From: Escherichia phage iGC_PHA_EC001
Sequence record: OR437326.1
Direction: 5' to 3' (one strand)
Length of the DNA stretch: 64,000 nt
The notes under the pieces were generated by a model. That model did not search any database. It was not told the origin of the DNA and worked only from the letters and a program-made list of their open reading frames with translations. The translations under genes and the position numbers were made by a program. This document shows, in pieces, positions 33,452 through 60,345 of this stretch (positions within the stretch are counted from its first letter, which is position 1; each line of letters begins with the position of its first letter).

Positions 33452-33465
33452 TGTTTTTCTCCTTA

Positions 33466-34437: not shown

Positions 34438-34479
34438 AAGTCTCTCCTATAAAATAGCCTCCCGAAGGAGGCTCATCTA

Positions 34480-35454: not shown

Positions 35455-35455
35455 T

Positions 35456-35530: not shown

Positions 35531-35533
35531 CAC

Positions 35534-35755
35534 TTATTTTGTTGAATGAGAGGAAAAGATTCCTCGTAATACAGCCAGAATAAACGAAACACAAACCACG
35601 GTCCAGAAGGTTACTGGGACAGTGATATCTGCATGACCCATAACTTCAGCAACATAGTTGTAAGCCAGCAACAGTAACCAAGCTGGAATCAAACTAAGCA
35701 TAAAAGCAATAACAAAAAAGCTTACCACTGCAACAATACCTGCAAAAACACCCAT
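35534..35755 (-). CDS. Small two-helix membrane protein
   Basis: 73 aa, two hydrophobic segments. Confidence 0.35.
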   Translation of the reverse strand: MGVFAGIVAVVSFFVIAFMLSLIPAWLLLLAYNYVAEVMGHADITVPVTFWTVVCVSFILAVLRGIFSSHSTK

Positions 35756-35767
35756 ACTAATCTCCTC

Positions 35768-36241
35768 TTAAAGTTTATAAATAGTCACATCGTGACCTGT
35801 TTTTACTAAAGTTTCTTCAATCATCACTTGGATGATAGCCCAATTACCTCCAGCATATCCAGCGCCAATCATAGGTAAGCCGATCTTACATTTTTGGTCA
35901 CGGAGAAGCAAATCATTAGCCATAGCTATTAGTGCATCATAAAGTGCATCATAGTCCAACTGACGACCTTTAGCATTGTATCCGTAACGGTATTGCCCGT
36001 ATAGATTATATACCAAAGGGTCTGATTGTTCGTCTGGCACCCCTAAACTAAAACAACCTAGTTTACTTTGATCACCAGCCATTGTGTCTAAGTCTGCTGC
36101 ATATGCGTAAGGAAATGCTCGTTTGATTTGTGGGGCAATACCTGCCCCCATATTACACATACAATTGCAACAATGAGCAATAACAGTTACTTCACCTGCT
36201 TTAGCGGCATCAATAAGATTACCTGTTTTAATTTTAAGCAT
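35768..36241 (-). CDS. Macro-domain protein (ADP-ribose binding/processing)
   Basis: Start at ATG 36241 with AAGGAG 8 nt upstream; VIAHCCNCMCNMGAGIAPQI and GLPMIGAGYAGGNWAIIQ match macro-domain glycine-rich loops. Confidence 0.7.
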   Translation of the reverse strand: MLKIKTGNLIDAAKAGEVTVIAHCCNCMCNMGAGIAPQIKRAFPYAYAADLDTMAGDQSKLGCFSLGVPDEQSDPLVYNLYGQYRYGYNAKGRQLDYDALYDALIAMANDLLLRDQKCKIGLPMIGAGYAGGNWAIIQVMIEETLVKTGHDVTIYKL

Positions 36242-36254
36242 TTTTAGCTCCTTA

Positions 36255-37082: not shown

Positions 37083-37731
37083 TTACAATTTCTCCTCTTT
37101 TAAGTTTCTCTAGTAAGTCGTTAGGGTTCTTAATATGACAGAAGTTAAATCCTAAGTCAACACATTTTCCATCATATTCTTCACTATCGCCTACGTGCAA
37201 CACTTCGTGCCCTAACAGAGGGATCGGAGAATACGTGAGCGTGCGAGCAAAGAATCGCGGATCTGGTTTACAAAGTAAAGCTTCATCCGAGAAATGGGTG
37301 AACTCAAAACAATTCCAACTATCAAACTTACAAGCACGACGCAGGATATCCCCTGATATGAAGTTGGTATTGCTCTTAATACTCAAATCATAACGCCCCG
37401 AAAGATACAGCAAGTACATCGGCAGATCCACGGCTACGTGTGGTGGAAACTTAAGGAACCACTGTTCACACTCGAAACGAAGCTTTGCAGACTTCCAAGG
37501 CGTTATCCCAAGTTCAGAACCAAGTCTTTCCCAGGCATATGCTGCACACTCGGCTTTGCCTTGAAGTGCTGCATTATCCAGTTCCTTTTTGATCTTTTTA
37601 TAAGCTGCTCTTGCTTCCACTTCCGTAATATCTCCATATTTTGCGATAGTCCAGGCTCGCATGTCTGCATAATTGGAGTTTGCTGTGATCAGTGTGTTCC
37701 ATACATCAAAAGAGATATGTTTAATAGTCAT
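37075..37731 (-). CDS. HAD-superfamily hydrolase (phosphatase)
   Basis: N-terminal ISFDVWNTLI (HAD motif I DxDx[TV]); 218 aa. Confidence 0.55.
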   Translation of the reverse strand: MTIKHISFDVWNTLITANSNYADMRAWTIAKYGDITEVEARAAYKKIKKELDNAALQGKAECAAYAWERLGSELGITPWKSAKLRFECEQWFLKFPPHVAVDLPMYLLYLSGRYDLSIKSNTNFISGDILRRACKFDSWNCFEFTHFSDEALLCKPDPRFFARTLTYSPIPLLGHEVLHVGDSEEYDGKCVDLGFNFCHIKNPNDLLEKLKRGEIVNA

Positions 37732-37732
37732 A

Positions 37733-38338
37733 TTAAGCCCACCATGCGTCTAAGTTAAGATTACTGTCCACTACCACTTGTTCTATGTGGTAGCCTTTTA
37801 TCTGTATCCCACTGTTCAAGAGCATATCATACGCTTCATTGAAACGCAACTTATCTTCTGCGGAATATAAGCGAGCATTATAAAATCGGTAATCAACTTC
37901 TTCAGCATTAGAAGAAATACGGAAGAAGTTTGTTTCTACTTCGGGATCACTTGCTGAAGTCTTAATGTGAACTTCTCCGTAATTTTCTTTACTTAGATCC
38001 ATGAAAAGAACACAGGCAACATGTTTAAACATTCGTTCCAGTTTGTAACGAACAACATTGAAACCTGCATTCTCAAGTTTTTCTACACACTGCAACATTA
38101 AAGTAGTGTCGAGATCGCTTTGATACTTTGTTAACATACGATCACGTTGAGACTTTGTATCCCGATGTAAATCAATTGTTGTGCATTTGGCACCAATAAT
38201 CTTAGCTGCTTTCATCAACTCTTCAGAACTAACGTTAGATAAAGTAAGATGAAAATGGGCTTTCCACACTTTTTTAGCAGGGACACCAAAAGATTTATCC
38301 CCACTATTCGGCATGTTGACTACTACACTATGTTGCAT
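37733..38338 (-). CDS. Hypothetical protein, first gene of the macro/PRTase/HAD operon
   Basis: 201 aa; contains HFHLTL and VHIKTS, only weakly reminiscent of the two H-x-T/S-x motifs of 2H phosphoesterases. Confidence 0.35.
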   Translation of the reverse strand: MQHSVVVNMPNSGDKSFGVPAKKVWKAHFHLTLSNVSSEELMKAAKIIGAKCTTIDLHRDTKSQRDRMLTKYQSDLDTTLMLQCVEKLENAGFNVVRYKLERMFKHVACVLFMDLSKENYGEVHIKTSASDPEVETNFFRISSNAEEVDYRFYNARLYSAEDKLRFNEAYDMLLNSGIQIKGYHIEQVVVDSNLNLDAWWA

Positions 38339-48968: not shown

Positions 48969-49140
48969 GGTATGCGATCACAGGTGCCAAGTCAAAATAA
49001 AAATGACCATTGATAACAGCTATCGTGCCATTGCGTGTTTTGTTAACTTCACAGAATCCCTTCTTGCCGTTTGCCATGATTACAAGCCACTCTCCGATAG
49101 GAACATCCTCGGTACCAGATACTTTAATCCATCCAATCAC
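48928..49140 (-). CDS. Hypothetical protein
   Basis: 70-aa ORF. Confidence 0.3.
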   Translation of the reverse strand: MIGWIKVSGTEDVPIGEWLVIMANGKKGFCEVNKTRNGTIAVINGHFYFDLAPVIAYHALPTYEEEINNG

Positions 49141-49397
49141 TTTACTTCCCCTTTGTAATCGGACACTATACCAGGTCTTACTTTTGCCTTAAGATGTTTC
49201 AACTCTGCCATAGGAGTTGCCACTTGTATAAGGTTAATAATTTCAACCTCGTAGATAGTATACTCATAACCCGCATACTTCCCGATGGAATGCAGGTATT
49301 TGATAGCATGTTCAGGTGAATCTGCTTCAACATACCCCAAATCTTTTGTAGTGCGGCCTTCACAGTCGCCTTCTGTAGTTACGTGATAAAGTGTCAT
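49137..49397 (-). CDS. Hypothetical protein
   Basis: 86-aa ORF. Confidence 0.3.
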   Translation of the reverse strand: MTLYHVTTEGDCEGRTTKDLGYVEADSPEHAIKYLHSIGKYAGYEYTIYEVEIINLIQVATPMAELKHLKAKVRPGIVSDYKGEVK

Positions 49398-49539
49398 AAA
49401 ACCTCCTCATAGTAAGGTAAAGCCTTGATCAATTGTTCTGAAGCACCATTCTCTATCCATGTAGCCCCGTTGTCAAGAGAAACATACCCTTTCTTATCGA
49501 TAAATTTACGAAGACAACCAGTGAACTTGTTTTTGTAGA

Positions 49540-49983
49540 TCATTTCTTCTTTCCTTTCTTTAATTTGTTGTGACCTTTACCCTTATAAAGCTTGTGATTA
49601 CGAGCAGACGGGTTATTTTGGTTCTCCAGTCGGCTAACAGGTGTATTCCAAAGGTTTCCTGCTACAAAAGATGCTGCCACAAGTTCTTCCAGGTATACAA
49701 AATCCAAAGCAGGTATCTTTGTTTCCCTAACCTCGCGTTCTACATTAGACAACACGCCTTCTTCCTTACTGTCTTCTTTTTCAATTACAGACCAACCCTC
49801 TTCCTGCCAAGCTTCCCCTCTGAACCAAGTTTCCATGTTATAACCTTGTTCGTCGAGAATAACACCATCTCGCATCTCAAACCATTCGCCACCACAAAAA
49901 TGGCGGTGCTCAACACGTCTACCTTCCTTCATTGCTTCTTTAGCTTCGGGCCAAGTCAGTTTGATGTTTTGGATGTTTTGCAT
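49540..49983 (-). CDS. Hypothetical protein with Lys-rich C-terminus
   Basis: 147-aa ORF; last gene of the - block before the divergent region. Confidence 0.3.
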   Translation of the reverse strand: MQNIQNIKLTWPEAKEAMKEGRRVEHRHFCGGEWFEMRDGVILDEQGYNMETWFRGEAWQEEGWSVIEKEDSKEEGVLSNVEREVRETKIPALDFVYLEELVAASFVAGNLWNTPVSRLENQNNPSARNHKLYKGKGHNKLKKGKKK

Positions 49984-50097
49984 TTGTTTTCTCCTTTTGT
50001 TTGGTAGTAGTTGATCTTAACAAGATTAAAAAGTATGTCAATACTTGATCTGAAATTATTTTCAGGTATCATATATGAACATTAACAAGAGAGGTAG

Positions 50098-50391
50098 ATG
50101 ATGAACATTACTTTAGCAACTAAGAATATTTCTGAAACAATTAACGGTTTTGGTGTGATTGTAGCCTTGCACGGTAACAATGAGAAATGGTTGGCTTCTT
50201 TTGAAGAGGATCGTCAGCACAACATCATTTTAGATGCTCCTATAAAAGTTATGCATATTGTTGGTGAAAGCAAAGTGCTCACTTCCTCCCGTTCAAAGGA
50301 ACAAATTACAAACGAATTAGTAAAACTGCTTGACAATGTTCTTAACATGTTTGATAATGCACCCATCGACACAAAACGTGTCTTAATGTGA
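50098..50391 (+). CDS. Hypothetical protein
   Basis: First gene of + block after divergent intergenic region; GAGAGG upstream. Confidence 0.3.
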   Translation: MMNITLATKNISETINGFGVIVALHGNNEKWLASFEEDRQHNIILDAPIKVMHIVGESKVLTSSRSKEQITNELVKLLDNVLNMFDNAPIDTKRVLM

Positions 50392-50403
50392 AAGGAGAAC
50401 AAA

Positions 50404-50691
50404 ATGTACTATTCACAAGACGAAGTAGCAAACATTAAACTGGCAGTGGGAGATCTTATTGTGTCACCTAACTACTATTGGGATAACAGAGATTTGGTTG
50501 AAGTAGTAACCTATGTTGGAGTTGAAGGTATTGTGCTCTACACACTAGGTGGAGGTGTTGTTGGGGAAATGGAACGTTATACGACAACGAAGAAACTGGT
50601 AAGCTCTTATCACATGTTTTTACACCAAGGTTCGGAAGAGTATACAGCTTTCTTGTTGAAATTAGATGCAGATCGGGAGAAGGCACGATGA
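50404..50691 (+). CDS. Hypothetical protein
   Basis: 95-aa ORF, GGAG upstream. Confidence 0.3.
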   Translation: MYYSQDEVANIKLAVGDLIVSPNYYWDNRDLVEVVTYVGVEGIVLYTLGGGVVGEMERYTTTKKLVSSYHMFLHQGSEEYTAFLLKLDADREKAR

Positions 50692-51044
50692 AAATTGTAC
50701 ACGATGAAATTCAAATAGAAGAAAGTGACCTGATGGATTTGGATGCAGTTTTGGGGAAGGTAATCTATGCAGGAATTAAAGCCTTCCGTGAGAAGGCAAA
50801 CAATAGCACGTTTGTCATGATCCCCACTAAACTGATGCGTGTTTTGTATCCAAATAGAAGTGCGCCGTATACAGATGAAGAAGAGGAGACAGGTAGAAGA
50901 GAGTGGTTAAATATTTTAGAAAAGATGGAGAATGCTTTTATTGATAGTGGTAATCCAGAAATCGTGTATGCTGAAGATCAAAGGAAGGCACGATTAGAGG
51001 GCCGTCTTTTATTCGCTAGTTATTTTGATAATCTTTGGAGCTAA
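50688..51044 (+). CDS. Hypothetical protein
   Basis: 118-aa ORF, ATGA overlap. Confidence 0.3.
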   Translation: MKIVHDEIQIEESDLMDLDAVLGKVIYAGIKAFREKANNSTFVMIPTKLMRVLYPNRSAPYTDEEEETGRREWLNILEKMENAFIDSGNPEIVYAEDQRKARLEGRLLFASYFDNLWS

Positions 51045-51223
51045 ATATGTCTGAATTCTTCACAATGGCTTTCTTAGGGATCTATCTGATTATTAGTGCT
51101 GTTGGCTTAATCATGTCTCTAATAGAGGAAATGGGAATTAAGTGGAATTGTGTATTCGGTATAGCTCTTATGCTCACTCCGGTTTGGATCTACATCTGCA
51201 AAGCAGTTGAACTAATTGGTTAA
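51035..51223 (+). CDS. Small membrane protein
   Basis: 62 aa, two hydrophobic segments. Confidence 0.3.
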   Translation: MELNMSEFFTMAFLGIYLIISAVGLIMSLIEEMGIKWNCVFGIALMLTPVWIYICKAVELIG

Positions 51224-51234
51224 TATGGGGTAAT

Positions 51235-51486
51235 ATGATTCAGTTCCAAAAAGGTCAAAAGATGACGGTATACGACGCAAAAGATATGGAATTTGCACTT
51301 GAACTTCTCGAAGATGCAGGTTTTGTGTGGATCAACGGCGGAGAGAAGCCTACGGCTTGGCTTCCACATGAAAAAGTAGTCAACCACACCTTTCCTGACA
51401 GTATCAACTGGCATTCTGATGGTAAGATTTGCCGTGGAAGTTACCCAACAGGTGTCGAGTGGACCATTAAATTAGGAGGGCTTTAA
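51235..51486 (+). CDS. Hypothetical protein
   Basis: 83-aa ORF. Confidence 0.3.
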   Translation: MIQFQKGQKMTVYDAKDMEFALELLEDAGFVWINGGEKPTAWLPHEKVVNHTFPDSINWHSDGKICRGSYPTGVEWTIKLGGL

Positions 51487-51487
51487 T

Positions 51488-51826
51488 ATGTTTAGTAAAG
51501 AGATGAGAGACGTAATTGCCACTCTGGTAGTTGATCATGGTGTTGAAGTTGAGCGTCACGTTTGGAAAGATGAGCCTCCTTTCTTTGATTTGGCATCACG
51601 GGCTAAAAGTCACATGTATCTCCTTGAAGATGATAAGGATTTTATTCTGCGTATGCGTTATGATCGAGAGTTTAGAATTCCTCTTGACACAGATCCTGAT
51701 GATGTAGTATTGTGGTTGGCAGAGCATTTCGCATTTAACGCTCTACATGGAAGAAGTTTTGGTAATGAACGTTGGGATACCATTTGTCGTAAACATAATA
51801 TTGAACCAGAATACGGGAGTATGTAA
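51488..51826 (+). CDS. Hypothetical protein
   Basis: 112-aa ORF. Confidence 0.3.
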   Translation: MFSKEMRDVIATLVVDHGVEVERHVWKDEPPFFDLASRAKSHMYLLEDDKDFILRMRYDREFRIPLDTDPDDVVLWLAEHFAFNALHGRSFGNERWDTICRKHNIEPEYGSM

Positions 51827-52077
51827 TGTTAAGCGTTAAGCCTAAGATGATCAGTGAAGACCAGAAAGATTTCATTTACAAGTGTGGACGAATCTGGAGA
51901 GAGTATACCAAGGGTAACGAGGTCGTGGTGGTTACTGAACACCAGATTGAAATCTCTGATCTTTTCGGTGATTATTTGCAAGTGATCAAATTAGGCATTG
52001 ACAGAGGTTTGGTGCAGGTGTTAACATTATCCCAAGTTGAAGCAGAACACTTAGACAAAATCATTGTCGAGTTCTAA
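51826..52077 (+). CDS. Hypothetical protein
   Basis: 83-aa ORF. Confidence 0.3.
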   Translation: MLSVKPKMISEDQKDFIYKCGRIWREYTKGNEVVVVTEHQIEISDLFGDYLQVIKLGIDRGLVQVLTLSQVEAEHLDKIIVEF

Positions 52078-52255
52078 GAGGAGAAAGAATATGATCTCTT
52101 TAGAATCAATAGCTTTTAAGAAAGGGTATACCGCAGGGTTCAAGTTTGGTATGTTTAATAAAGTAAATCCATACTGTCCAATGACACACAAAAAGGAATT
52201 CGAAGAATGGGAAGATGGATTTTCTAAAGGCTACCAGGCAAAGGGTTGGTTGTAA
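52064..52255 (+). CDS. Hypothetical protein
   Basis: 63-aa ORF. Confidence 0.3.
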   Translation: MSSSKRRKNMISLESIAFKKGYTAGFKFGMFNKVNPYCPMTHKKEFEEWEDGFSKGYQAKGWL

Positions 52256-52410
52256 GGAGAGAATATGATTTTAAACTTCATCATCAACTTGTGTTTGACA
52301 TTGGGACTACTCTGTGCAATAGTATCCCCTCTGGTTGGTGAATATTGTTCTGAACTGGCGATGTTTATAGTTCTTGGTGCAGCTATTGCTAATATGTTTG
52401 TCGCTGCGAT

Positions 52411-52770
52411 TTGTATGTTGTGGGAATAGGAGGGAAGTTTATGAAAAAATTAATCTTAGCCACATTGCTGGCTACCGTAAGCTTCACCACTTACGCTCAA
52501 AAATTTGTAGCAGTTAAAACGGATATTGGTAAAGATGTTGTGATCACAGGCAACAAATTTTACTATACCCCTGGAAATGGTGTTCTAGAAGAGTGCCAAG
52601 ATGTTGAGGCATATACAGGAAAAGAAGATAACACGGAACGTCCTTTTTATTCGATTATAGCTACTTGCAAAAATGAAATAGTAGCTATTAAACAATACAA
52701 AGATGCCCCTGGAGGAGAGTACTTATTAATCAAGAATATTAAGAGTGAAAAACTACAAAGTTTACAGTAA
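52411..52770 (+). CDS. Secreted hypothetical protein (signal peptide)
   Basis: MKKLILATLLATVSFTTYAQ. Confidence 0.35.
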   Translation: MYVVGIGGKFMKKLILATLLATVSFTTYAQKFVAVKTDIGKDVVITGNKFYYTPGNGVLEECQDVEAYTGKEDNTERPFYSIIATCKNEIVAIKQYKDAPGGEYLLIKNIKSEKLQSLQ

Positions 52771-52795
52771 TTATTTTAAAAGGAGAAACGTTCTA

Positions 52796-53935
52796 ATGAA
52801 ATACACTATTTTTGGAGATGTGGCTGTTGTAAATAAGGAATATGGTGTTGAAGCTAATAAACTTCCTGCTGGAGTTTGGGTTGTCAACTGCGATCCGCAC
52901 GGTAACTACTCTTTAGTGCGTGGCGAAAGTTTCTCTCTTCCGAACACTCTTTATGGGGAAACTAAAGACCGCGCCGCACATGTTATTAAAACATTTGCTC
53001 GTCGTAGTAAAGAAGGTAAAAATACTGGGGTGTTACTGACAGGAACAAAGGGCAGTGGTAAGACGATGTTAGCTAAACTGATTAGCATGTCCCTAATGTC
53101 CACAGAAGGTTTAGGTATTCCAACCATTTTGGTGACACAGCCTTACACAGATGCTGGATTCTTAGAATTTATGAGTAAAATTACAGATCGTGCTGTTGTT
53201 TTATTTGACGAGTTTGATAAAGTGTACGCTAAGAAAGAAGATCAGGAAGCACTGTTGACCTTGTTGGATGGAACAGGAAGTGGAAATAAACTTTACATCC
53301 TCACTAAAAATAGTGGCTATATCTCGGAATATTTTGTAAACCGTCCTAGTCGTATCTACTACAGTTTCAATTACGATAAACTGTCTAGTGAAACTATGTT
53401 AGATTACTTGGATAAGAACTTGGTAAATAAAAAGCACGTAGATAACTTCCAACGTTTATGGGATGTTAGCACAGAGTTGTCTTTCGATGTTATTCAAGGC
53501 ATTGTAGAAGAATTGAATTTCTATCCAAAAATGACTTTTAAAGAATGTCTTGAAATGATGGGTATTTCTTTAGGGAACGATGCTAAATGGAATGTGGCTT
53601 CTATCGTAGCTAATGGCAAAACCTTGAAGGTGAATTGGATCAATAACTGGCACGACTTCACCCCTACTAAGTTTTTGTCGGGTGCTTGTTCCCTGAACAT
53701 CTATCTACAAAGTTTGAAAGATGATGAAGTGGAAGCAATAGAAACCAACAGTTATGTTATCCTGGATGAAGATGGTGATCCACATATTGATCTATGTGCA
53801 ACGGCGGATGGTCTAACTTGCGATCTGATTGAAGGTGGTAAGATTCTTGTGATGAGCACTACACCAGGAAACACTCTGCGAGTGGTGCTGGAGCCTGTAA
53901 CACAACGTTCCACCACACTTGGTAGCGTGTTCTAA
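52796..53935 (+). CDS. AAA+ ATPase
   Basis: Start at ATG 52796 after AAAGGAG; Walker A GVLLTGTKGSGKTMLAKL; Walker B VVLFDEFDKV. Confidence 0.55.
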   Translation: MKYTIFGDVAVVNKEYGVEANKLPAGVWVVNCDPHGNYSLVRGESFSLPNTLYGETKDRAAHVIKTFARRSKEGKNTGVLLTGTKGSGKTMLAKLISMSLMSTEGLGIPTILVTQPYTDAGFLEFMSKITDRAVVLFDEFDKVYAKKEDQEALLTLLDGTGSGNKLYILTKNSGYISEYFVNRPSRIYYSFNYDKLSSETMLDYLDKNLVNKKHVDNFQRLWDVSTELSFDVIQGIVEELNFYPKMTFKECLEMMGISLGNDAKWNVASIVANGKTLKVNWINNWHDFTPTKFLSGACSLNIYLQSLKDDEVEAIETNSYVILDEDGDPHIDLCATADGLTCDLIEGGKILVMSTTPGNTLRVVLEPVTQRSTTLGSVF

Positions 53936-53940
53936 TAAAG

Positions 53941-53965
53941 ATGCCCCGCAAGGGGCATTTCTTAT
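53941..53965 (+). terminator. Rho-independent terminator
   Basis: ATGCCCC-gcaa-GGGGCAT followed by TTCTT. Confidence 0.55.
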
Positions 53966-53976
53966 AGGATGAAATC

Positions 53977-55185
53977 ATGAGTAAAGCTAAAAGTTGGGAA
54001 GAATATAAAGCAGAATGCGAGATCATAGCTCTCTCTAAAGGATATAAAATTTTAGGCCATAAAGAATGGAAAGGGTGTGAGACTAAACTCCTGATAGAAT
54101 GTCCTGTGCACGGTGTATGGGATACTTGTAAAATATCTAACTTTAAAAGTGGGAAGTCTTGCCCTTCTTGTGGTGAATTAACAAAAAGGGAGAAGAGAAC
54201 GAAGAGCAGAGAGGACCAAGAGAAAGAGTGTGAAGAAGAAGCGTTAAAAAGAGGTTGGCGCTTCTTGGGTATCTATGGAGAATGGCTGAAAGCTAAAAAG
54301 ACACGAGTAATCTTACGTTGTGATAGGGGTCACGAGTTTAACACATCTACCATAGACAACTTTAAGAATAATAAACAAGGTTGTCCAGTTTGTCGTTTAG
54401 AGGATATAGGTAAACACAATAAGCTTTCAGACGATCAGCACATACAAGATTTCATGAGTACGGGTGTGTTTCCCGAAGGCACTACCTTCACTAATACAGG
54501 GGAAAAAGCTGGGAGGAGCGAAATACTTTGGAGTGTATTTTGCCCTATCTGTGCTATAGATGAGTTTTCCAAAGCTGGGGTAGGAACGGGATATTTTATC
54601 GGTAGAGGTAGTTCATTAAAACAGGGTATGCGCCCTTGTCGTTGTTCTGCCAGTTACAAATATTCTGAAGAAGAGATGACATTTAGAGCAAAAAGTGACG
54701 TAGAACGTAGAGGGTACGTGTGGTTGGGGTGGATCGGGAAAGCTTCTATACTTGGGGATTTTGAATATGGTTGCAAGGATCATGGGAAACATGTGTGTAG
54801 TGCTAACAATTGGTTAAATAAGGGGTGTGGTTGCCCTGGTTGTGCAGGTATGAATCAACAACAAGCCTACATTAATTATATTTACGATGAGCAAGATATT
54901 ATCTGTGCACTGAAGTTTGGTATTGCTAATAATAGTAATCGCCGTATCAAAGAACAAAATAGTCGTAATGTGTTTACTATGAAACAGAGCCAAGTGTGGC
55001 ACTTCCCTACTGTGAAGCAATGCAAAGATGCAGAAAAGCGTTGTAAGCGTGTCCTTCACACGGAAGCAGTGAGCAAATATTCTATGCCAGATGGCTACAC
55101 AGAGACAGTGGAGTTATCTTGCATGGCATCAATACAAAATATTTATAAACTTTATGGTGGAACATTACAGGAGGAAACATGTTAG
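53977..55185 (+). CDS. Cys-rich protein with three tandem zinc-ribbon-like repeats
   Basis: Three repeats of G-[YW]-x-[IF]-LG..W..x..C..HG..x..NF..G..CP-x-C (from aa 20, 90 and 236). Confidence 0.4.
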   Translation: MSKAKSWEEYKAECEIIALSKGYKILGHKEWKGCETKLLIECPVHGVWDTCKISNFKSGKSCPSCGELTKREKRTKSREDQEKECEEEALKRGWRFLGIYGEWLKAKKTRVILRCDRGHEFNTSTIDNFKNNKQGCPVCRLEDIGKHNKLSDDQHIQDFMSTGVFPEGTTFTNTGEKAGRSEILWSVFCPICAIDEFSKAGVGTGYFIGRGSSLKQGMRPCRCSASYKYSEEEMTFRAKSDVERRGYVWLGWIGKASILGDFEYGCKDHGKHVCSANNWLNKGCGCPGCAGMNQQQAYINYIYDEQDIICALKFGIANNSNRRIKEQNSRNVFTMKQSQVWHFPTVKQCKDAEKRCKRVLHTEAVSKYSMPDGYTETVELSCMASIQNIYKLYGGTLQEETC

Positions 55186-55544
55186 TTGACGTTCAAATTA
55201 TGCGCAACGAAAGAATGGACTTCTTTGAAGCAGTAGAGAAACATCTGATCAGATGGGACTATGAATTTGTTCCTGCTGGATGTGGACCAGTAGAGCATTT
55301 AGCGGAAGACGACGATGTATACATGATCATTCGTCAAGTGTACCAGACAGACCAGTGTGAAGAAACTCCCGAACTAATTTTGTTTGAGTGCAAAGATCTT
55401 GCAAAATATTTTGACTATGGCGGAAAAGAGGGTCATAATCTCTCCAGATACAATAAACGTCTACTTATCTTAGACTACATGCGGAACAACAAACACAAAC
55501 TCATCGACGCAGACGCAGTTTATGGCTACTGGTGGATGGACTAA
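55179..55544 (+). CDS. Hypothetical protein
   Basis: 121-aa ORF. Confidence 0.3.
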   Translation: MLVDVQIMRNERMDFFEAVEKHLIRWDYEFVPAGCGPVEHLAEDDDVYMIIRQVYQTDQCEETPELILFECKDLAKYFDYGGKEGHNLSRYNKRLLILDYMRNNKHKLIDADAVYGYWWMD

Positions 55545-55737
55545 CAAAGGAGAAACTATGGCACGTTTAGCAGATCATGAAATCTTTAAACCTATTCTGA
55601 ACCACTATGATGAACTTAAAGCAGTGTTGGATTGTTATAAAGAGGATGAAGAACGCTTGGAAGTCAATCTTAAGATAGTTCTGATGAAAGCTTTTCAAGA
55701 CGGGCAAGCTAAAGTCTTAGAAGGTATGAAAAAATGA
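55522..55737 (+). CDS. Hypothetical protein
   Basis: 71-aa ORF. Confidence 0.3.
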   Translation: MATGGWTNKGETMARLADHEIFKPILNHYDELKAVLDCYKEDEERLEVNLKIVLMKAFQDGQAKVLEGMKK

Positions 55738-56276
55738 GAATAACTGACGAATATGTATTCTTCTTTTCACATAAAGATGTTTTTAGTAATTGGTATATTG
55801 CACCCTTTACAGAAACCGAACCAGGTTACAATCAGACATTTAATTGTGTCGAACAATACATGATGTGGCGTAAAGCTTTGCTTTTTAATGACCACAACAC
55901 TGCACAGGCTATTCTGACTCATAGTTTGATACGGAAAGATGAGAAGATCCAAGCTTATTACAAACGTATGGGTAGGGCAGTGTCGGATTTTGATAACAAT
56001 ATGTGGGAAGAGAACCGTGAGCGTATTGTTATGCGAGGTTTATGCTTGAAATATGTACAGAATCCAGATTTGTATGCAGACTTACACCTTTACCAATACA
56101 AAACGTTTGTTGAAGCAAGCCCCTACGATAAGGTTTACGGAATTGGAATGGGGATGTATGAACCAGGGGTGCTAAACCCTGCCACCTGGAAAGGACAGAA
56201 TCTTTTAGGCAAATATCATAATAAACTGATCGAAATACTTTTCCCAGACAAAATACCGCAAAGACGATATTTGTGA
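55734..56276 (+). CDS. NADAR-domain (YbiA-like) protein
   Basis: VFFFSHKDVFSNWY..PF..x..FNCVEQYMMWRKALLF..x..NPDLYADL..x..EASPYDKVYGIGMG matches the NADAR family pattern. Confidence 0.6.
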   Translation: MRITDEYVFFFSHKDVFSNWYIAPFTETEPGYNQTFNCVEQYMMWRKALLFNDHNTAQAILTHSLIRKDEKIQAYYKRMGRAVSDFDNNMWEENRERIVMRGLCLKYVQNPDLYADLHLYQYKTFVEASPYDKVYGIGMGMYEPGVLNPATWKGQNLLGKYHNKLIEILFPDKIPQRRYL

Positions 56277-56330
56277 TATTTTAACTTTTTTCATTTTTAG
56301 AACAAAGGTGTCACTTTGTAGCACAGAAAT

Positions 56331-56368
56331 AAGGCTCCTACAGCACCGTAGAGAGCCTGTTATTTTGT
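56331..56368 (+). terminator. Rho-independent terminator ending the + gene block
   Basis: AGGCTC-ctacagcaccgtaga-GAGCCT hairpin followed by GTTATTTTGTCC. Confidence 0.5.
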
Positions 56369-56520
56369 CCTATACAAACCCTTGTCTTTTTCAGTTTGCA
56401 TCACTAGGATTCGATCTGAGTGGGTTCCTGAAGGTCTGCCAATAAGATTAAAGGTTATCTCAAACTCCCATTACCTATTATCTCAAAAATCCCTCAAATT
56501 ATTTAAACTTTTTAAGAATT

Positions 56521-56566
56521 TACAAAAGTGAAAGTTGAAAACCAAAATTTAAAGTTTAGGAAAATT
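56521..56566. repeat. AT-rich direct repeat, copy 1 (iteron-like)
   Basis: TACAAAAGTGAAAGTTGAAAACCAAAATTTAAAGTTTAGGAAAATT; about 80% identical to copy 2. Confidence 0.45.
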
Positions 56567-56658
56567 ATCTTAAAATGTCAGATACAAAACAAAACTCAAA
56601 AGTCAAGGAAAATTTTAAAAATTTTGCGCGCCCACAGTATTTAAAGTTTTTTTGCTTT

Positions 56659-56704
56659 TACAAAAATGAAAGTACAAAAGCAAAATTTAAAGTTTACAAA
56701 AATT
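56659..56704. repeat. AT-rich direct repeat, copy 2 (iteron-like)
   Basis: TACAAAAATGAAAGTACAAAAGCAAAATTTAAAGTTTACAAAAATT. Confidence 0.45.
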
Positions 56705-56714
56705 TATGCAGATG

Positions 56715-56825
56715 GGAATGAGAAGAGTTCTCATATGGAAATGCAAATGATAATGATTCGCATTTAGGTTTATAAATGAGATTGATTCTTATTTGATAAG
56801 GTAAATGATAATCATTCTCATTTAG
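56715..56825. promoter_or_regulatory. Cluster of Fur-box-like palindromes
   Basis: AATGAGAAGAGTTCTCAT (56717..56734), AAATGATAATGATTCGCATT (about 14/19 to GATAATGATAATCATTATC), AATGATAATCATTCTC (about 16/19 including an exact AATGATAATCATT 13-mer). Confidence 0.4.
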
Positions 56826-57055
56826 AGAATGACGCGCAGGGGCGGTGTTTGTCTCGCGCTCCCGTGTCCCCTCGCCATGTAATAAGAATAACAGATCCAG
56901 CCAGGAAAGCAAGCGATTATTTTATCTTTACATTTCTTTACAAATATATAGCGCCCAGCCTACCGGCGATCAACCTTCCAACCAGTGCCCCTGGTATGTT
57001 AGCCCCGCCTTTACGCCGTGGGGTGGCGCTTCCTCTTCTGTATGTAAAACAGTAT

Positions 57056-57095
57056 AAGCCCGATCCCTGGGCTTGTCAAGATTATTTTTTGTTTT
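57056..57095. terminator. Bidirectional terminator
   Basis: AAGCCCGATCCCTGGGCTT hairpin; T-run ATTATTTTTTGTTTTC on + side; lies at the 3' end of - gene 57082..57348. Confidence 0.5.
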
Positions 57096-57348
57096 CTTGC
57101 CAGGTCAGGACACCTAGCCAAAAATGAATATCACCTTTTCCCCAATGTGGTATATTGCTTTCTTTCCCACCTTCACGCGCCCAGGTAAAACCGCCCGTGT
57201 AACTTTGTAATTGATAACTATCCTCGACCTTATAATCTGATAGGTTGAGAACGGTTTCAACCTTTAAGCCCGTTGCGCTTGCTACCTGGTGCACCGTGCC
57301 GCCTTGCCAGCCCAATGAGTGCATAAGATGTAATGTAGTATTTGTCAT
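57082..57348 (-). CDS. Hypothetical protein
   Basis: 88-aa ORF, the only - strand gene in the early region. Confidence 0.3.
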   Translation of the reverse strand: MTNTTLHLMHSLGWQGGTVHQVASATGLKVETVLNLSDYKVEDSYQLQSYTGGFTWAREGGKESNIPHWGKGDIHFWLGVLTWQENKK

Positions 57349-57456
57349 GGTGTCGCCCTTTCTTTGTTGTGCGCCCTGGTTGGCGCGGTAGAAAGATGAT
57401 AGCCCTTTCCTTTATATATAGCAAGCAAAAAGAAAATAAAAAAGATTGAAAAAGTG

Positions 57457-57514
57457 GTTGACGTTCGCCAGGTGGCGGCATAATATTTACCACGTAGCGC
57501 GGCAATGGTGCCGC
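57457..57514 (+). promoter_or_regulatory. Early promoter plus 5' stem-loop cassette
   Basis: TTGACG, 17 bp, TAATAT, then hairpin GCGGCAATGGTGCCGC, then GGAG and ATG. Confidence 0.5.
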
Positions 57515-57535
57515 TCACTATTTGGAGTTAAGATC

Positions 57536-57733
57536 ATGGCAACATTGCACATTGTGGCGAAAGCTGGACAAATCAACGTAATAGTAAACGGTTTTACTGA
57601 GTTCAGTCATCCCCAGGATGATCATGAAACGGTTTTATCTTTCATTGATTCCCTGTTAGAAATGGGAGTCATTACAGAAGACCAGCACGCTACAAAATGC
57701 AAGCGCGTTAATCAAATTGCAGGGATAGAATAA
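57536..57733 (+). CDS. Early hypothetical protein
   Basis: Start set at ATG 57536 downstream of the cassette (the listed 57446 start would run through the promoter). Confidence 0.4.
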   Translation: MATLHIVAKAGQINVIVNGFTEFSHPQDDHETVLSFIDSLLEMGVITEDQHATKCKRVNQIAGIE

Positions 57734-57739
57734 AAAGTA

Positions 57740-57798
57740 TTGACAACAAACAACAACCTGATAAGATGTATCACATAGGGCGGGAAGTGGTTTCCCGC
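57740..57798 (+). promoter_or_regulatory. Early promoter plus 5' stem-loop cassette
   Basis: TTGACA, 16 bp, TGaTAAGAT extended -10, hairpin GGGCGGGAA-gtggt-TTCCCGC. Confidence 0.55.
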
Positions 57799-57823
57799 TC
57801 GTAACAGAAGAGAGATTATCATC

Positions 57824-58096
57824 ATGGCATCATATAGCGCAACAATGATCGTAGCTGGCACAACTGGTAAACCTATGAGCGGTGTCGGATCTTTCGCTAA
57901 TATCAATATTGACGGGCGTTTATCCCTGGACGCAGCGATTGCCATTGCACGGGAAACATTTAAGAAAGAATGTAATTTCAACAAGCAAGATTATCTCGGT
58001 TTCGCTATTGAAAAAACCGCGCGCTTTGTTGATTATAAAAGCCCGAAAATGGTTGATACTACACTAAAAGCGCAAGATGTAGCGTTTTTGCTTTAA
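57824..58096 (+). CDS. Early hypothetical protein
   Basis: 90-aa ORF after cassette; AGAGAG site. Confidence 0.4.
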   Translation: MASYSATMIVAGTTGKPMSGVGSFANINIDGRLSLDAAIAIARETFKKECNFNKQDYLGFAIEKTARFVDYKSPKMVDTTLKAQDVAFLL

Positions 58097-58099
58097 GGC

Positions 58100-58156
58100 T
58101 TGACATTAACGAATAATTTGTTAATATGTTACATAAAGCGGGAATAGTTCCCGCTA
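58100..58156 (+). promoter_or_regulatory. Early promoter plus 5' stem-loop cassette
   Basis: TTGACA, 16 bp, TAATAT, hairpin AGCGGGAA-tag-TTCCCGCT. Confidence 0.55.
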
Positions 58157-58172
58157 TTTGTAAGGTGGTAGA

Positions 58173-58430
58173 ATGTTTTACATCAAATTAAAAGGTCACG
58201 TGATCGCGTTCAAAGATAACGCTTTTTACAGATTAGCAAAATATGCGTTAATACATCCCCACTATGTTTATATAAGGGGGCGTGACGAAATAAATATCTT
58301 TGATCAAACAACATGCGAAAACATCGAGATCCGCAAGGTTGGCGTACGTGATTATCGTACATCTTTCTACCCTTGCAAGGATTCAGCAAGTCTTTTTAAG
58401 GTATGTCAATTGTTGAAAAAAGGTGGTTAA
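58173..58430 (+). CDS. Early hypothetical protein
   Basis: 85-aa ORF after cassette. Confidence 0.4.
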   Translation: MFYIKLKGHVIAFKDNAFYRLAKYALIHPHYVYIRGRDEINIFDQTTCENIEIRKVGVRDYRTSFYPCKDSASLFKVCQLLKKGG

Positions 58431-58431
58431 T

Positions 58432-58989
58432 ATGGGCCGCGAATATGTGATCCAGTCTTGGGTAAAACATGAAGCAGATGATCCGCGCATCATTCCCGAT
58501 CATCTTATCGATGAATCCACGGGATATAGCGGTGAGCAAATAGGTAACAGATTAGCACGTAGTAACGGCAACATAAAAGCGCGTTATGTGCGCCCTGGCT
58601 GGCTGGCAAATGGTAACGCTGATTTATCCAGTGCGGAAGATGCGAGCGACGGCGCGAAAGATAATCCTTTGTACAAAATTGATCCGGCTTTTCGTGTCCT
58701 GGATGAATACCCCAGCAAGATAGCGGCGCTTGATGAAGCATTGGAAAGTAAGCGCATCTCCTGGACCGCTTACAACATGGCAAAAAACGTACTTGATGGT
58801 AAATTGATTCAAGCTGAAAGAAAATTAGCCAAAATTGCAGCCATAGCCCAGGAGGAAGACGAGGAGACAACGGAAGAGGAAGAGTACGAAGAGATCCCGC
58901 CGTTGTTGTGTGTTGATGCTTTTCCTGATTATCAGCCGACAGAGGAAGAAAAAAGGATCGCACTAGAAAACTTTGAAAATAGTCTTTGA
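58432..58989 (+). CDS. Early hypothetical protein with acidic C-terminal region
   Basis: ATG 58432 after AAAGGTGG; 185 aa. Confidence 0.4.
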   Translation: MGREYVIQSWVKHEADDPRIIPDHLIDESTGYSGEQIGNRLARSNGNIKARYVRPGWLANGNADLSSAEDASDGAKDNPLYKIDPAFRVLDEYPSKIAALDEALESKRISWTAYNMAKNVLDGKLIQAERKLAKIAAIAQEEDEETTEEEEYEEIPPLLCVDAFPDYQPTEEEKRIALENFENSL

Positions 58990-59044
58990 CATATCGCCGC
59001 CACTGGCATAATATTTACCACGTAGGGCGGCAATGGTGCCGCTC
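58986..59044 (+). promoter_or_regulatory. Early promoter plus 5' stem-loop cassette
   Basis: TTGACA, 17 bp, TAATAT, hairpin GGGCGGCAATGGTGCCGCTC. Confidence 0.55.
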
Positions 59045-59071
59045 ATAGTGAAATTATGCAAGAGGTTTACA

Positions 59072-59167
59072 ATGATTGATAAAGAAAATAGCTTGACGGT
59101 TGGAACGATTAACGCTATCATTCTTGCCGTTCCATTTTGGATTGTATTAGCGGCTATTATTTTCTAA
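59072..59167 (+). CDS. Possible 31-aa hydrophobic peptide
   Basis: Short ORF MIDKENSLTVGTINAIILAVPFWIVLAAIIF between two cassettes; below the ORF-track size cutoff. Confidence 0.2.
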   Translation: MIDKENSLTVGTINAIILAVPFWIVLAAIIF

Positions 59168-59176
59168 AAAATATTC

Positions 59177-59237
59177 TTGACAACGTTTTTTAATCTGATA
59201 AGATGTATCACATAGGGCGGCGGAATACTTCCCCGCC
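59177..59237 (+). promoter_or_regulatory. Early promoter plus 5' stem-loop cassette
   Basis: TTGACA, 16 bp, TGaTAAGAT, hairpin GGCGGGGAA-gta-TTCCGCCGCC read on either strand. Confidence 0.55.
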
Positions 59238-59258
59238 AAAACAAAAAAGGGTAACACA

Positions 59259-59621
59259 ATGAGCAAGCAAATCAATACTATCATGTTTAATCTGGTATCT
59301 TTCCGCGATGATATGAAAAATTTACCACGTGAAACGGTTGATATTCATGTTTCAGCTTATCGCGCCCTTATTGATATGTTACCGCTAAAACGTGATCAAC
59401 ATGCCGCTAATATGATGCTTAATGCTATGCTTAAAAAGATGATTCAAACGGATCTTACTCTGGCGTATGAGTATCAAGGGCGCTTATATGCTACTTACAA
59501 CAAAGCGGTACCTGGTCTGGGAAGTACCGAAGAGTTGCACGGCTTAAACCTGGATCAAAACACTTGGGATAGTATGCGCCGCGTTATGGTATGGGCCGAA
59601 AGCGGTAAAATTTACGAATAA
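59259..59621 (+). CDS. Early hypothetical protein
   Basis: 120-aa ORF after cassette. Confidence 0.4.
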   Translation: MSKQINTIMFNLVSFRDDMKNLPRETVDIHVSAYRALIDMLPLKRDQHAANMMLNAMLKKMIQTDLTLAYEYQGRLYATYNKAVPGLGSTEELHGLNLDQNTWDSMRRVMVWAESGKIYE

Positions 59622-59626
59622 AAACG

Positions 59627-59685
59627 GTTGACACTGTTTAAAATTCTGGTATAGTTTATCACGTAGGGCGGCAATGGTGCCGCCA
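59627..59685 (+). promoter_or_regulatory. Early promoter plus 5' stem-loop cassette
   Basis: TTGACA, 17 bp, TGgTATAGT, hairpin GGCGGCA-atg-GTGCCGCC. Confidence 0.55.
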
Positions 59686-59704
59686 ATAATGAAAGGTTAA
59701 CATC

Positions 59705-59884
59705 ATGGCTATCATTGCAAAAACTGAGATTATAGGTTTAGATCCGATCCTCCTGGCTTATGAGGAAACTTTAAAAATGTATGTAGTGACCTATGGTGAT
59801 TATGTGCGTGAATACGAATACATTGATCTTGCTTTCGAATGTTACATTCGCCAGGTCAATAAAGCCTATAACGATTATCGTTAA
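59705..59884 (+). CDS. Early hypothetical protein (59 aa)
   Basis: ORF after cassette, below the ORF-track size cutoff. Confidence 0.35.
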   Translation: MAIIAKTEIIGLDPILLAYEETLKMYVVTYGDYVREYEYIDLAFECYIRQVNKAYNDYR

Positions 59885-59902
59885 AAGTTTTAGTCTTATA
59901 CT

Positions 59903-59931
59903 ATTGACAATGAGTGATAGTATAAGCATAA
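59903..59931 (+). promoter_or_regulatory. Early promoter (no GC stem-loop; degenerate cassette)
   Basis: TTGACA followed by AT-rich -10 region (TATAAG/CATAAT) upstream of 59980. Confidence 0.35.
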
Positions 59932-59979
59932 TAACTTTTATCGGGAATACTCCTAACTAATCAAAAGAGATTAAAGACT

Positions 59980-60345
59980 ATGGCTAAAAATATCAATGTT
60001 TCTGCTTATGCTACCCTGGCTAACACTGCTAAAATTGAACTATCCAGCATTGAAGCGGTACATATTAGCGCCCGTCGCTGGTTTCAAAAGTCTTATGGTA
60101 ATACTTATTTCTCTTTGATGGTTGACGTTGAGATCGGCGGTAAACTGATCGAAGTGGTTAACGTTCCGTTTCAATATGGCTATGGGGATCATTTTGATAC
60201 CGTCGCCCTAGAAGAGTTTAGCAAGGTTATCAACCTGGAAGGTAAAGAGTTTTCAAATTATGCCTACCTTTCCCGTTTTTGCCGTGACAATGGGATCACT
60301 GTATACAGTCATGCGAGCGATGTAAAACGTAAAAAAGATTTATAA
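59980..60345 (+). CDS. Early hypothetical protein
   Basis: 121-aa ORF. Confidence 0.4.
   Translation: MAKNINVSAYATLANTAKIELSSIEAVHISARRWFQKSYGNTYFSLMVDVEIGGKLIEVVNVPFQYGYGDHFDTVALEEFSKVINLEGKEFSNYAYLSRFCRDNGITVYSHASDVKRKKDL

Follow-up and report, generated by a model that had tools for sequence, protein, structure and literature searches.

A NADAR protein of the AdfN-Bas60 lineage in a Phapecoctavirus, probably an eraser of DarT1 marks

The window that we analyzed—the whole 64,000-nucleotide stretch of record OR437326.1—is a piece of a Phapecoctavirus, ESCO5/phAPEC8-like and in the subfamily Stephanstirmvirinae, and it carries a gene for a NADAR protein. We argue that this protein is probably an orphan, antitoxin-like ADP-ribosylglycohydrolase, an anti-DarT factor of the AdfN type that is expressed in a long same-strand block of genes. 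The finding of a NADAR gene is correct and is mostly known biology, the function of its orthologue having already been published (PMC11825919). Our analysis extends that 2025 result on AdfN-Bas60 to a sister genus and opens no new question, and by placing the protein in the AdfN-Bas60 lineage, it corrects a widespread misannotation.

The original prediction had put a NADAR-domain protein at this position, and the reading frame, the profiles, and the matches of the protein and its AlphaFold2 model to solved structures all agree with it. In a search with the Pfam DUF1768/NADAR profile (PF08719), the protein scores 123.8 bits (E 1e-35), well above the gathering cutoff of 35.1, in an alignment that spans positions 3–154 of the profile's 163; phrog_1017 matches as well (E 5e-52). 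The start of the reading frame overlaps the stop of the one upstream (ATGA), and among four Phapecoctavirus orthologues, dN/dS for the gene is 0.046–0.069, which amounts to strong purifying selection. At least about 70 phage records hold the protein at 80% amino acid identity or more. The labels that its relatives bear in GenBank are “GTP cyclohydrolase II,” “hypothetical protein,” and “YbiA-like N-glycosidase.”

What does the protein look like? Its AlphaFold2 model (mean pLDDT 95.6, pTM 0.89) has strands at residues 7–10, 25–29, 32–36, and 124–127 and five helices, which matches the YbiA-like fold (an alpha-helical core with small beta sheets on its flanks). Foldseek returns only two significant matches in the PDB, 8BAU (TM 0.78) and E. 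coli YbiA, 2B3W (TM 0.69), and the first of these is also matched by sequence (E 1e-14). The predicted catalytic residues are Glu40, Lys47, and Glu127, all of them conserved. E40 and K47 align with E43 and K50 of 8BAU, the conserved catalytic Glu and Lys that are E88 and K95 in the NADAR of E. coli C7 (PMC11543638), and they are invariant in alignments of 10 and of 89 sequences. E127 lies within the motif VEASPYD, is invariant in the larger alignment, and aligns with the Glu that is E127 in the 8BAU chain and E125 as numbered in PMC11543638. That paper names 11 residues of 8BAU that contact ADP-ribose, and 8 of the 11 are identical in the phage protein (E43, K50, K75, R79, W89, R93, E125, and D130 in 8BAU; E40, K47, K77, R81, W91, R95, E127, and D132 in the phage). 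The remaining three are conservative replacements (from 8BAU to phage, Y84 to F86, D86 to N88, and W133 to Y135).

By its active-site residues, the phage protein belongs to the generic Glu-type family, one of the four NADAR families set out in PMC12945103, whose mark is a Glu as the third catalytic residue (E125 of 8BAU, E167 of SCO5665). The residues in question are E127, S129, D132, and W20, and the clade profile gives 123.7 bits on 8BAU vs. 63.2 bits on YbiA 2B3W. In vitro, all four families hydrolyze G-ADPr, and the Glu-type families hydrolyze C-ADPr as well (PMC11125620; PMC12945103); members of the generic family remove both from DNA and from RNA, whereas the NADARs of DarG1 and T4 remove G-ADPr only (PMC12945103).

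Might it instead be a DarG1, or a member of the T4-like “phage NADAR” family? We rejected both. DarG1 carries a catalytic Asp (D171 of C7) and is encoded beside DarT1, and its N-terminal beta1-beta2-alpha1 extension carries a basic DNA-binding surface (PMC11543638); the phage protein has Glu127 where DarG1 has Asp, no N-terminal extension, and no toxin as a neighbor, and these three features are the basis of the call. The phage core starts at residue 1–10, with the catalytic Glu at residue 40 (88 in C7), so that there is no room for the DarG1 extension. The DarG1 structure 8BAT was recovered neither by the clade profile, nor by a broad profile of 10 sequences (E ≤ 10), nor in the Foldseek list. 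The T4-like family, which is marked by a minimal core and by a His as third catalytic residue, was rejected because the phage protein has Glu127 instead of His and is 16% identical to gp30.3 in the alignment. The NADARs of T4 and of Phapecoctavirus were acquired independently.

What is such a protein good for in an infected cell? According to Johannesman et al. (Nat Commun 2025, PMC11825919), AdfN-Bas60, a protein of the BASEL phage Bas60, needs no further phage factor to neutralize DarT1, and it rescues the plating of three phages sensitive to DarTG1 (RB69, T5, and Bas25) on DarTG1 but not that of T5 on DarTG2. We identified AdfN-Bas60 via the bas60/bas61 locus tags. Our protein is 59% identical to bas60_0111 (QXV83846.1) over 172 aa (E 2e-69) and likewise 59% identical to bas61_0107, near-identical copies of AdfN-Bas60 being present in Bas61 and Bas62. 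Bas60–62 are phi92-like phages, a sister clade of Phapecoctavirus (PMC8594841), and the gene order ATPase, CapR protein, NADAR is common to the two genera. Judged from sequence and gene order together, bas60_0111 is the syntenic orthologue of our protein in the sister genus Justusliebigvirus. The suggestion that the phage enzyme could reverse guanine ADP-ribosylation by DarT has, for this 59%-identical syntenic relative, been shown by experiment (PMC11825919). Neither among the neighbors of the NADAR gene nor in the ESCO5 annotation of the corresponding 63 kb is there an ADP-ribosyltransferase or a DarT.

The chain of events that we propose is short. The enzyme, made at a time that we infer to be early, would bind the ADP-ribose that the host's DarT1 had attached to guanine in phage DNA at the N2 amino group, and it would hydrolyze the N-glycosidic bond by way of Glu40, Lys47, and Glu127; the DNA would return to its unmodified state, and replication could proceed in E. 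coli carrying DarTG1. That the Phapecoctavirus protein acts as AdfN-Bas60 does, despite the 41% of residues that differ, is something that we infer. Because the active site is the Glu type of the generic family, cytidine-linked and RNA-linked ADP-ribose may also be removed. Hydrolysis of G-ADPr in vitro is no guarantee of protection in cells. YbiA and T4 gp30.3 hydrolyze G-ADPr, yet neither of them, when expressed alone, saves E. coli from DarT1 (PMC11125620).

Table 1. Features of the window discussed in the text, in order of position
Feature	Coordinates	Strand	Description
Macro-domain gene	35768..36241	-	157 aa; Tk.4/AdfM / SCO6735 / DarG-macro type
AAA-type ATPase	52796..53935	+	379 aa with the start used in the ESCO5/phAPEC8 annotation
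Cys-rich protein	53977..55185	+	402 aa; three CapR-homology stretches
121-aa ORF	55179..55544	+	phrog_24465
Small ORF	55558..55737	+	59 aa in the annotation of relatives; phrog_22330; stop overlaps NADAR start
NADAR gene	55734..56276	+	180 aa, ATG start; assigned as orthologue of AdfN-Bas60
Intrinsic-terminator-like hairpin	56332..56368	+	AGGCUCCUAC...GUAGAGAGCCU then GUUAUUUUGU; closes the gene array

The NADAR gene had been described as the last of an operon that also holds an AAA+ ATPase and a Cys-rich protein, and so we find it: it comes last in a tight same-strand array in which both of the others (the Cys-rich one being the CapR protein) are present, and a terminator hairpin stands behind it (Table 1). 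The RNA fold of 56300–56385 has an energy of −27.1 kcal/mol (z −4.07), the annotation of phAPEC8 has a terminator at the matching place, and 3′ of the hairpin lie some 800 nt without an ORF before the next gene, which is encoded on the other strand. The transcription unit probably takes in more than the three genes of the original prediction, starting at about 50098, and expression of the NADAR protein would be from this long same-strand block of small genes; a hairpin at 53941–53958 may partly interrupt the unit. What we say of promoters and of expression timing comes from consensus matches only. No RNA genes were found by ARAGORN in the whole window, and no Rfam family matched at E ≤ 1 in 49000–60000.

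As for the neighbors themselves, the ATPase matches Pfam AAA (29.7 bits) and phrog_2376 (E 6e-111). An AAA ATPase is the conserved upstream neighbor in Phapecoctavirus and Justusliebigvirus. The Cys-rich protein matches Pfam CapR in its three stretches (E 1e-22) and the endonuclease family phrog_681, its relatives being labeled endonuclease too; its C terminus weakly resembles MUG113/T5orf172 (MUG113 at 17.7 bits, below the cutoff), and it is 47% identical to bas61_0106. The 121-aa ORF is missing at the corresponding position in the Justusliebigvirus phages Bas60 and Bas61. We considered whether ATPase, CapR protein, and NADAR form one functional module and rejected the idea for want of evidence; the three are linked only within Stephanstirmvirinae. 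In KpS8, a Mydovirus, the neighbors of the NADAR gene are instead an HNH endonuclease and an exonuclease, and at the two bacterial homologues examined, there is no conserved partner and no ADP-ribosyltransferase neighbor.

Could the enzyme have other business than DarT1? It might be a broad nucleic acid de-ADP-ribosylase that acts mainly not on DarT1 products but on C- or G-linked ADP-ribose left on RNA or DNA by other ADP-ribosyltransferases of the host, such as pierisin/ScARP-like or YarT-like toxins, a reading that is compatible with the explanation that we favor and that we hold to be unlikely. It accords with the Glu-type active site, with the G- and C-ADPr removal from DNA and RNA credited to that family (PMC12945103), and with a clade profile that is closest to 8BAU, and the best PADLOC match of the protein is the NADAR component of a candidate defense system, PDC-M42C, which shows the NADAR family at work in further conflict systems. 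In the literature that we examined, however, no antiphage system of E. coli is reported to put ADP-ribose on cytidine or on guanine in RNA, and the sole physiological phenotype shown for the orthologue is anti-DarTG1 (PMC11825919). That same phenotype, concerned as it is with DNA modification (PMC11825919), weighs against the notion that the phage protein degrades soluble ADP-ribose-derived molecules (immune second messengers or the products of NADases) and so blunts NAD-based signaling defenses. We give this notion little credence, even though DNA viruses combine NADAR, Macro, SLOG, and Nudix at rates above expectation (PMC9503650) and free ADP-ribose is bound by the NADAR of 8BAU (PMC11543638): the prediction in PMC9503650 was made before the biochemistry was done and is backed by no experiment in the literature examined, and the ESCO5 annotation of the region equivalent to the window has no NAD-salvage or Nudix genes.

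There is also the matter of the names that the relatives bear. “GTP cyclohydrolase II” and “YbiA-like N-glycosidase” speak for a housekeeping N-glycosidase of the YbiA/RibX type that acts on reactive intermediates of the riboflavin pathway, and so does the score of 113 bits on the NCBIfam model TIGR02464 (ribofla_fusion), for which the curated cutoff is 73.7. We rejected this as the main function, and we regard it as very improbable indeed. The model scores the validated AdfN-Bas60 equally (109.4 bits) and therefore does not tell the two functions apart. The similarity to YbiA is weak (29% over 96 residues, E 2e-6), no RibA/RibD fusion or riboflavin genes lie nearby, and it is not evident why a phage should have to keep riboflavin intermediates in check. 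Anti-DarT activity of the AdfN type remains the reading that we prefer.

The macro-domain gene, which had likewise been predicted, is borne out by matches to phrog_335 (3e-54) and to the solved structures 5E3B (9e-13) and 5M31, the DarG macrodomain (3e-6), with TARG1 at about 2e-6; the protein narrowly passes Pfam Macro (23.1 bits; cutoff 22). The PADLOC model of the DarG macrodomain gives it 4e-10, with Tk.4 and our protein in the range of about 1e-9 to 4e-10. It is 36% identical to Tk.4 of T4 (E 6e-21), and the motifs IAH-CN, G-G, N..xQ, and P-IG-G..G-W are common to the two. PMC12945103 counts SCO6735 among the T-ADPr hydrolases. From its sequence matches, the macro protein is a candidate thymidine-ADP-ribose hydrolase. 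The claim that one phage carries two unrelated ADP-ribose-handling folds finds a direct precedent in T4, which has AdfN (NADAR, anti-DarTG1) as well as AdfM/Tk.4 (macro, anti-DarTG2) (bioRxiv 10.1101/2025.11.20.689424). A phage Ter-like cluster (vWA-TerF, TelA, TerC, PRTase_3, and HAD) surrounds the macro gene, and because of this context, the role of the gene is less certain; the cluster suggests a possible alternative role (for Ter systems, see PMC7824862).

Why should one care? ADP-ribosylation of phage DNA by DarT is an established defense, and the erasers AdfN (a NADAR) and AdfM and AdfB (macrodomains) are known phage counters to it. Our reading predicts intrinsic resistance to DarTG1 for these phages, among them some that were isolated with a view to phage therapy, and because an AdfM-like macrodomain is also carried, resistance to DarTG2 is possible too. 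We go one step further only tentatively, with an idea that we ourselves consider doubtful: that the two proteins make up a two-enzyme eraser set, a Glu-type NADAR plus an AdfM-like macrodomain for thymidine-ADP-ribose, assembled independently of T4's, with the NADAR acting perhaps also on C- or RNA-ADPr. If so, the set would resist DarTG1, DarTG2, and possibly still-unknown defenses by ADP-ribosyltransferases that target cytidine or RNA, and the macrodomain may also be tied into a phage-borne Ter system.

How does all of this compare with what is already known? YbiA (2B3W) has the core fold in common with the phage protein (TM 0.69), and both exceed the TIGR02464 cutoff, but the two are not close, BLASTP aligning them at 29% identity over only 96 residues (E 2e-6); in E. 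coli, YbiA sits in the LexA-linked dinG/ybiB neighborhood, whereas the phage NADAR is a stand-alone phage gene. The generic Glu-type family (8BAU, SCO5665, and the E. coli sigma70-linked NADAR) supplies the best structural and profile match, 8BAU, the NADAR of Phytophthora nicotianae, with which the phage protein shares the E/K/E triad and most of the ADP-ribose contacts. Identity to these cellular generic NADARs is about 28–34%, an insertion that 8BAU has after the GIG motif is absent from the phage protein, and 8BAU and the other generic NADARs are cellular proteins, whose physiological partners may be others. DarG1 of the BC4488 type (E. coli C7, G. lovleyi 8BAT) has the same predicted reaction, hydrolysis of guanine-N2-ADP-ribose in DNA.

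There remain the comparisons with phages. T4 gp30.3 (AdfN-T4) belongs to the same superfamily and follows the same counterdefense logic—an orphan NADAR that erases DarT1 marks—and the macro gene of our phage, as distinct from T4 Tk.4, stands between TerC and the PRTase_3/HAD genes. AdfN-T4 needs its T-even context and does not neutralize DarT1 alone, whereas AdfN-Bas60 does so alone (PMC11825919). From AdfN-Bas60, our protein differs in a loop between residues 27 and 36 that is 6–7 residues shorter, in an unlike C-terminal tail, and in the two extra small ORFs that lie between the CapR and NADAR genes. With it, our protein shares its length class, the Glu-type active site with VEASPYD, and the subfamily Stephanstirmvirinae, and both are orphans, with no toxin adjoining.

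The reading frame originally predicted to encode a NADAR-domain protein is a genuine gene under purifying selection and no chance ORF; its dN/dS among four Phapecoctavirus orthologues is 0.046-0.069, and its ATG overlaps the stop of the small ORF upstream (as ATGA). The domain assignment held up in the Pfam search, where the protein matched almost the entire PF08719 profile (E 1e-35; 123.8 bits, with the gathering cut-off at 35.1), and phrog_1017 was matched at 5e-52. Plain phmmer found the Phytophthora nicotianae NADAR solved with ADP-ribose (8BAU) at 1e-14, and an AlphaFold2 model built from 89 homologues (mean pLDDT 95.6, pTM 0.89) had only two significant Foldseek matches in the PDB: 8BAU (TM 0.78) and E. 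coli YbiA (2B3W, TM 0.69).

Is the active site intact? Schuller et al. (PMC11543638) have described the ADP-ribose contacts of 8BAU and the residues required for guanine-ADP-ribose hydrolysis by the E. coli C7 NADAR; the chain numbering of 8BAU is theirs plus 2, an offset that all 11 residue types fit. Of these contacts the phage protein keeps eight unchanged (E43 to E40, K50 to K47, K75 to K77, R79 to R81, W89 to W91, R93 to R95, E125 to E127 and D130 to D132), and the other three are changed conservatively (Y84 to F86, D86 to N88 and W133 to Y135). E40, K47 and G80 are invariant in both of our alignments (one of 10 diverse NADARs, the other of 89 homologues), while R81 is invariant in the first and nearly so in the second, and E127 the reverse. 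The third catalytic position, which is Glu in generic NADARs and YbiA but Asp in DarG1, with His in the phage NADARs of the T4 type (PMC11543638, PMC12945103), is here a Glu within the motif VEASPYD. The clade profile of the phage NADAR scored 123.7 bits on 8BAU versus 63.2 on YbiA and did not retrieve the DarG1 structure 8BAT. With E. coli YbiA, BLASTP aligned only 96 residues, at 29% identity; T4 gp30.3 is 16% identical; and whereas the catalytic Glu of C7 DarG1 is residue 88, that of the phage protein is residue 40, in a core beginning at the N-terminus, so that the DarG1-specific N-terminal extension is absent. No ADP-ribosyltransferase is encoded by the neighbouring genes or in the ESCO5 annotation of the corresponding region. 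These scores, low identities and absences together mark the protein, as judged from sequence, as a stand-alone Glu-type generic NADAR.

What would such a protein do for its phage? The proposed activity, reversal of DarT-type ADP-ribosylation of guanine, was established in 2025 for the syntenic orthologue in the sister genus. At least about 70 phage records carry the protein at ≥80% identity by tblastn, and the next group, at 59%, consists of phi92-like phages, including the BASEL phage EmilieFrey (Bas61, locus tag bas61_0107); PaulScherrer (Bas60) has bas60_0111, and JohannJBalmer (presumably Bas62) is a third BASEL carrier, its gene 96.7% identical. The Bas60-62 group is the sister clade of Phapecoctavirus (Maffei et al., PMC8594841). 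Our protein and bas60_0111 share 59% identity over 172 aa (E 2e-69), and in both genera the NADAR gene is preceded by the genes of an AAA ATPase and of a CapR-repeat protein, the latter 47% identical between them. Johannesman et al. (Nat Commun 2025, PMC11825919) named bas60_0111 AdfN-Bas60 (anti-DarT factor NADAR); no further phage factor was needed for it to neutralise DarT1 in E. coli. It let RB69, T5 and Bas25 plate again on hosts with DarTG1, and it gave T5 no help against DarTG2.

Most likely, then, the phage NADAR is an orphan antitoxin-like glycohydrolase: host DarT1 would attach ADP-ribose to guanine N2 of phage DNA, the NADAR would strip it off, and phage replication would go on. For this protein itself the fold, an intact catalytic site, its orthology and synteny, and purifying selection are directly supported; its anti-DarT1 function we infer across 59% identity from the orthologue's phenotype, and its expression is presumably early. 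Cytidine-linked ADP-ribose is a further substrate of the Glu-type NADAR and YbiA families, which work on RNA too, whereas DarG1 and the T4 NADAR leave the cytidine mark in place (PMC12945103); a wider substrate range, including cytidine- or RNA-linked ADP-ribose, is therefore plausible.

Two other roles have to be weighed. The protein exceeds the cut-off of the riboflavin-intermediate N-glycosidase model NCBIfam TIGR02464 (113 bits against 73.7), which explains the GenBank labels 'GTP cyclohydrolase II' and 'YbiA-like N-glycosidase'; AdfN-Bas60, however, scores 109.4 as well, so the model is unable to decide function, and we consider such an activity highly improbable. (The labels of orthologues are inconsistent: besides 'GTP cyclohydrolase II', which was carried over in error from COG3236 proteins fused to RibA, there are 'hypothetical protein', 'putative YbiA-like N-glycosidase' and 'NADAR family protein'.) Iyer et al. 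2022 (PMC9503650) predicted soluble ADP-ribose derivatives to be the substrates of phage NADARs, but the literature that we examined offers no experimental support for this, and we think it unlikely here. Two close bacterial homologues, one in a prophage-like context and one standing alone, have no conserved partner gene.

Over 4.3 kb around the NADAR gene, nucleotide-level identity is 98.7% to ESCO5 and 97.6% to phAPEC8 (both Phapecoctavirus, subfamily Stephanstirmvirinae), and the macro-gene region matches phAPEC8 and PNJ1809-36 at 98.7-99.1%; the window is thus a piece of a lytic phAPEC8-like myovirus genome of ~150 kb. The description of a tight gene array ending in the NADAR gene is borne out. 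From ATPase to NADAR the genes run in one direction, overlapping or with short gaps, and a terminator-like hairpin follows at the place of an annotated phAPEC8 terminator, with ~800 nt free of ORFs beyond it and then a gene on the opposite strand; the same-strand block in fact begins near 50098, past a divergent promoter-like region. A perfect palindrome inside the presumed operon could be a bidirectional terminator or attenuator. We rejected an ATPase-CapR-NADAR functional module, the linkage being restricted to Stephanstirmvirinae; the arrangement looks like inherited gene order. The CapR-repeat/T5orf172-like 'endonuclease' differs in length (402 aa here, 394 in phAPEC8, 335 in Mt1B1_P17, 325 in Bas61, 467 in Bas60; stretches of relatives compared, L002 4023-5000 and L011 2097-3500), which suggests that Cys-rich CapR repeats are gained and lost.

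Features in the window
Feature	Position	Strand	Remarks
Ter-like cluster	28959-38338	-	phage-borne
vWA-TerF-like	28959-29753	-	Ter-like cluster
TelA	31155-32267	-	Ter-like cluster
SprT-like	32264-32854	-	Ter-like cluster
TerC	34480-35454	-	Ter-like cluster
Macro gene	35768-36241	-	Ter-like cluster; Pfam Macro 23.1 bits, cut-off 22 (narrow pass)
PRTase_3/ComF-like	36255-37082	-	Ter-like cluster
HAD-like hydrolase	37075-37731	-	Ter-like cluster; sub-threshold in Pfam Hydrolase; phrog_14393 'hydrolase'
Perfect GC-rich palindrome ATGCCCCGCAAGGGGCAT	53941-53958		in 41-nt ATPase-CapR gap; T-rich flanks, both strands
CapR protein	53977-55185	+	
NADAR gene	55734-56276	+	180-aa ORF
Terminator-like hairpin, U-rich tail	56332-56368	+	z -4.07; 3' of NADAR gene
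72-nt direct repeat	56495-56566, 56633-56704		82% identity
Partial third copy	56586-56614		
Four palindromic boxes	56717-56825		~19 nt, 29-nt period
Leader copies	57458-57518, about 58986-59046		

The ORF-free spacer 3' of the NADAR gene holds repeats of its own. Both full copies of the direct repeat contain a promoter-like TTTACA-N18-CAAAAT and a common core, AAAATTTAAAGTTTA. The boxes (AATGAGAAGAGTTCTCATA, AATGATAATGATTCGCATT, AATGAGATTGATTCTTATT and AATGATAATCATTCTCATT) share a motif with 5 matches against 0.06 expected and none elsewhere in the window; the last, AATGATAATCATTCTCATT, differs from the E. coli Fur-box consensus at 3 positions, and the array could bind or titrate Fur or provide operators for a regulator of the phage. 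Farther on, a promoter-like TTGACG-N17-TAATAT and a conserved leader occur in two near-identical copies (2 differences in a 42-nt core), each upstream of + strand small genes, with spurious antisense ORFs starting MSGTIAALRGKYYA as a result. In the matched 4.3 kb, the records of relatives contain 'repeat_region' annotations. Elsewhere, four successive glycosyltransferase genes (ESCO5 gp211-214; L009 23802-26946 and the corresponding stretch of the window) lie between a primase/helicase gene and the endolysin region, in the vicinity of the genes for DNA polymerase and a Dam-like methyltransferase. Modification of DNA or of surface glycans is a possible role for them; these phages are nonetheless highly sensitive to restriction-modification systems (BASEL paper, PMC8594841).

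The macro gene lies between TerC and the PRTase_3/HAD pair, with TelA and vWA-TerF close by, and anaerobic ribonucleotide reductase genes adjoin the cluster. For phage Ter systems, proposed roles are defence against superinfecting phages and the making or sensing of a nucleoside-like signal (PMC7824862), and this setting means that the role of the macro gene may differ from that of AdfM, the T4 macrodomain Tk.4. The macro family is present in 2,933 phage records, and large DNA phages that carry Macro together with NADAR have been described before (PMC9503650). The protein matches phrog_335 at 3e-54 and, among solved macrodomains, SCO6735 (5E3B, 9e-13), the Thermus DarG macrodomain (5M31, 3e-6) and TARG1 (about 2e-6); SCO6735, DarG2 and TARG1 hydrolyse the thymidine-ADP-ribose made by DarT2 (PMC12945103). 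Tk.4 is 36% identical to it (E 6e-21), has motifs in common and matches the PADLOC DarG model at a similar score. The AdfM-like macrodomain of the window may act against DarTG2. Because a T4 knockout of Tk.4, hence its recent name AdfM, turned DarTG2-sensitive (bioRxiv 10.1101/2025.11.20.689424), the original proposal that one phage carries two unrelated ADP-ribose-handling folds has a direct precedent in T4.
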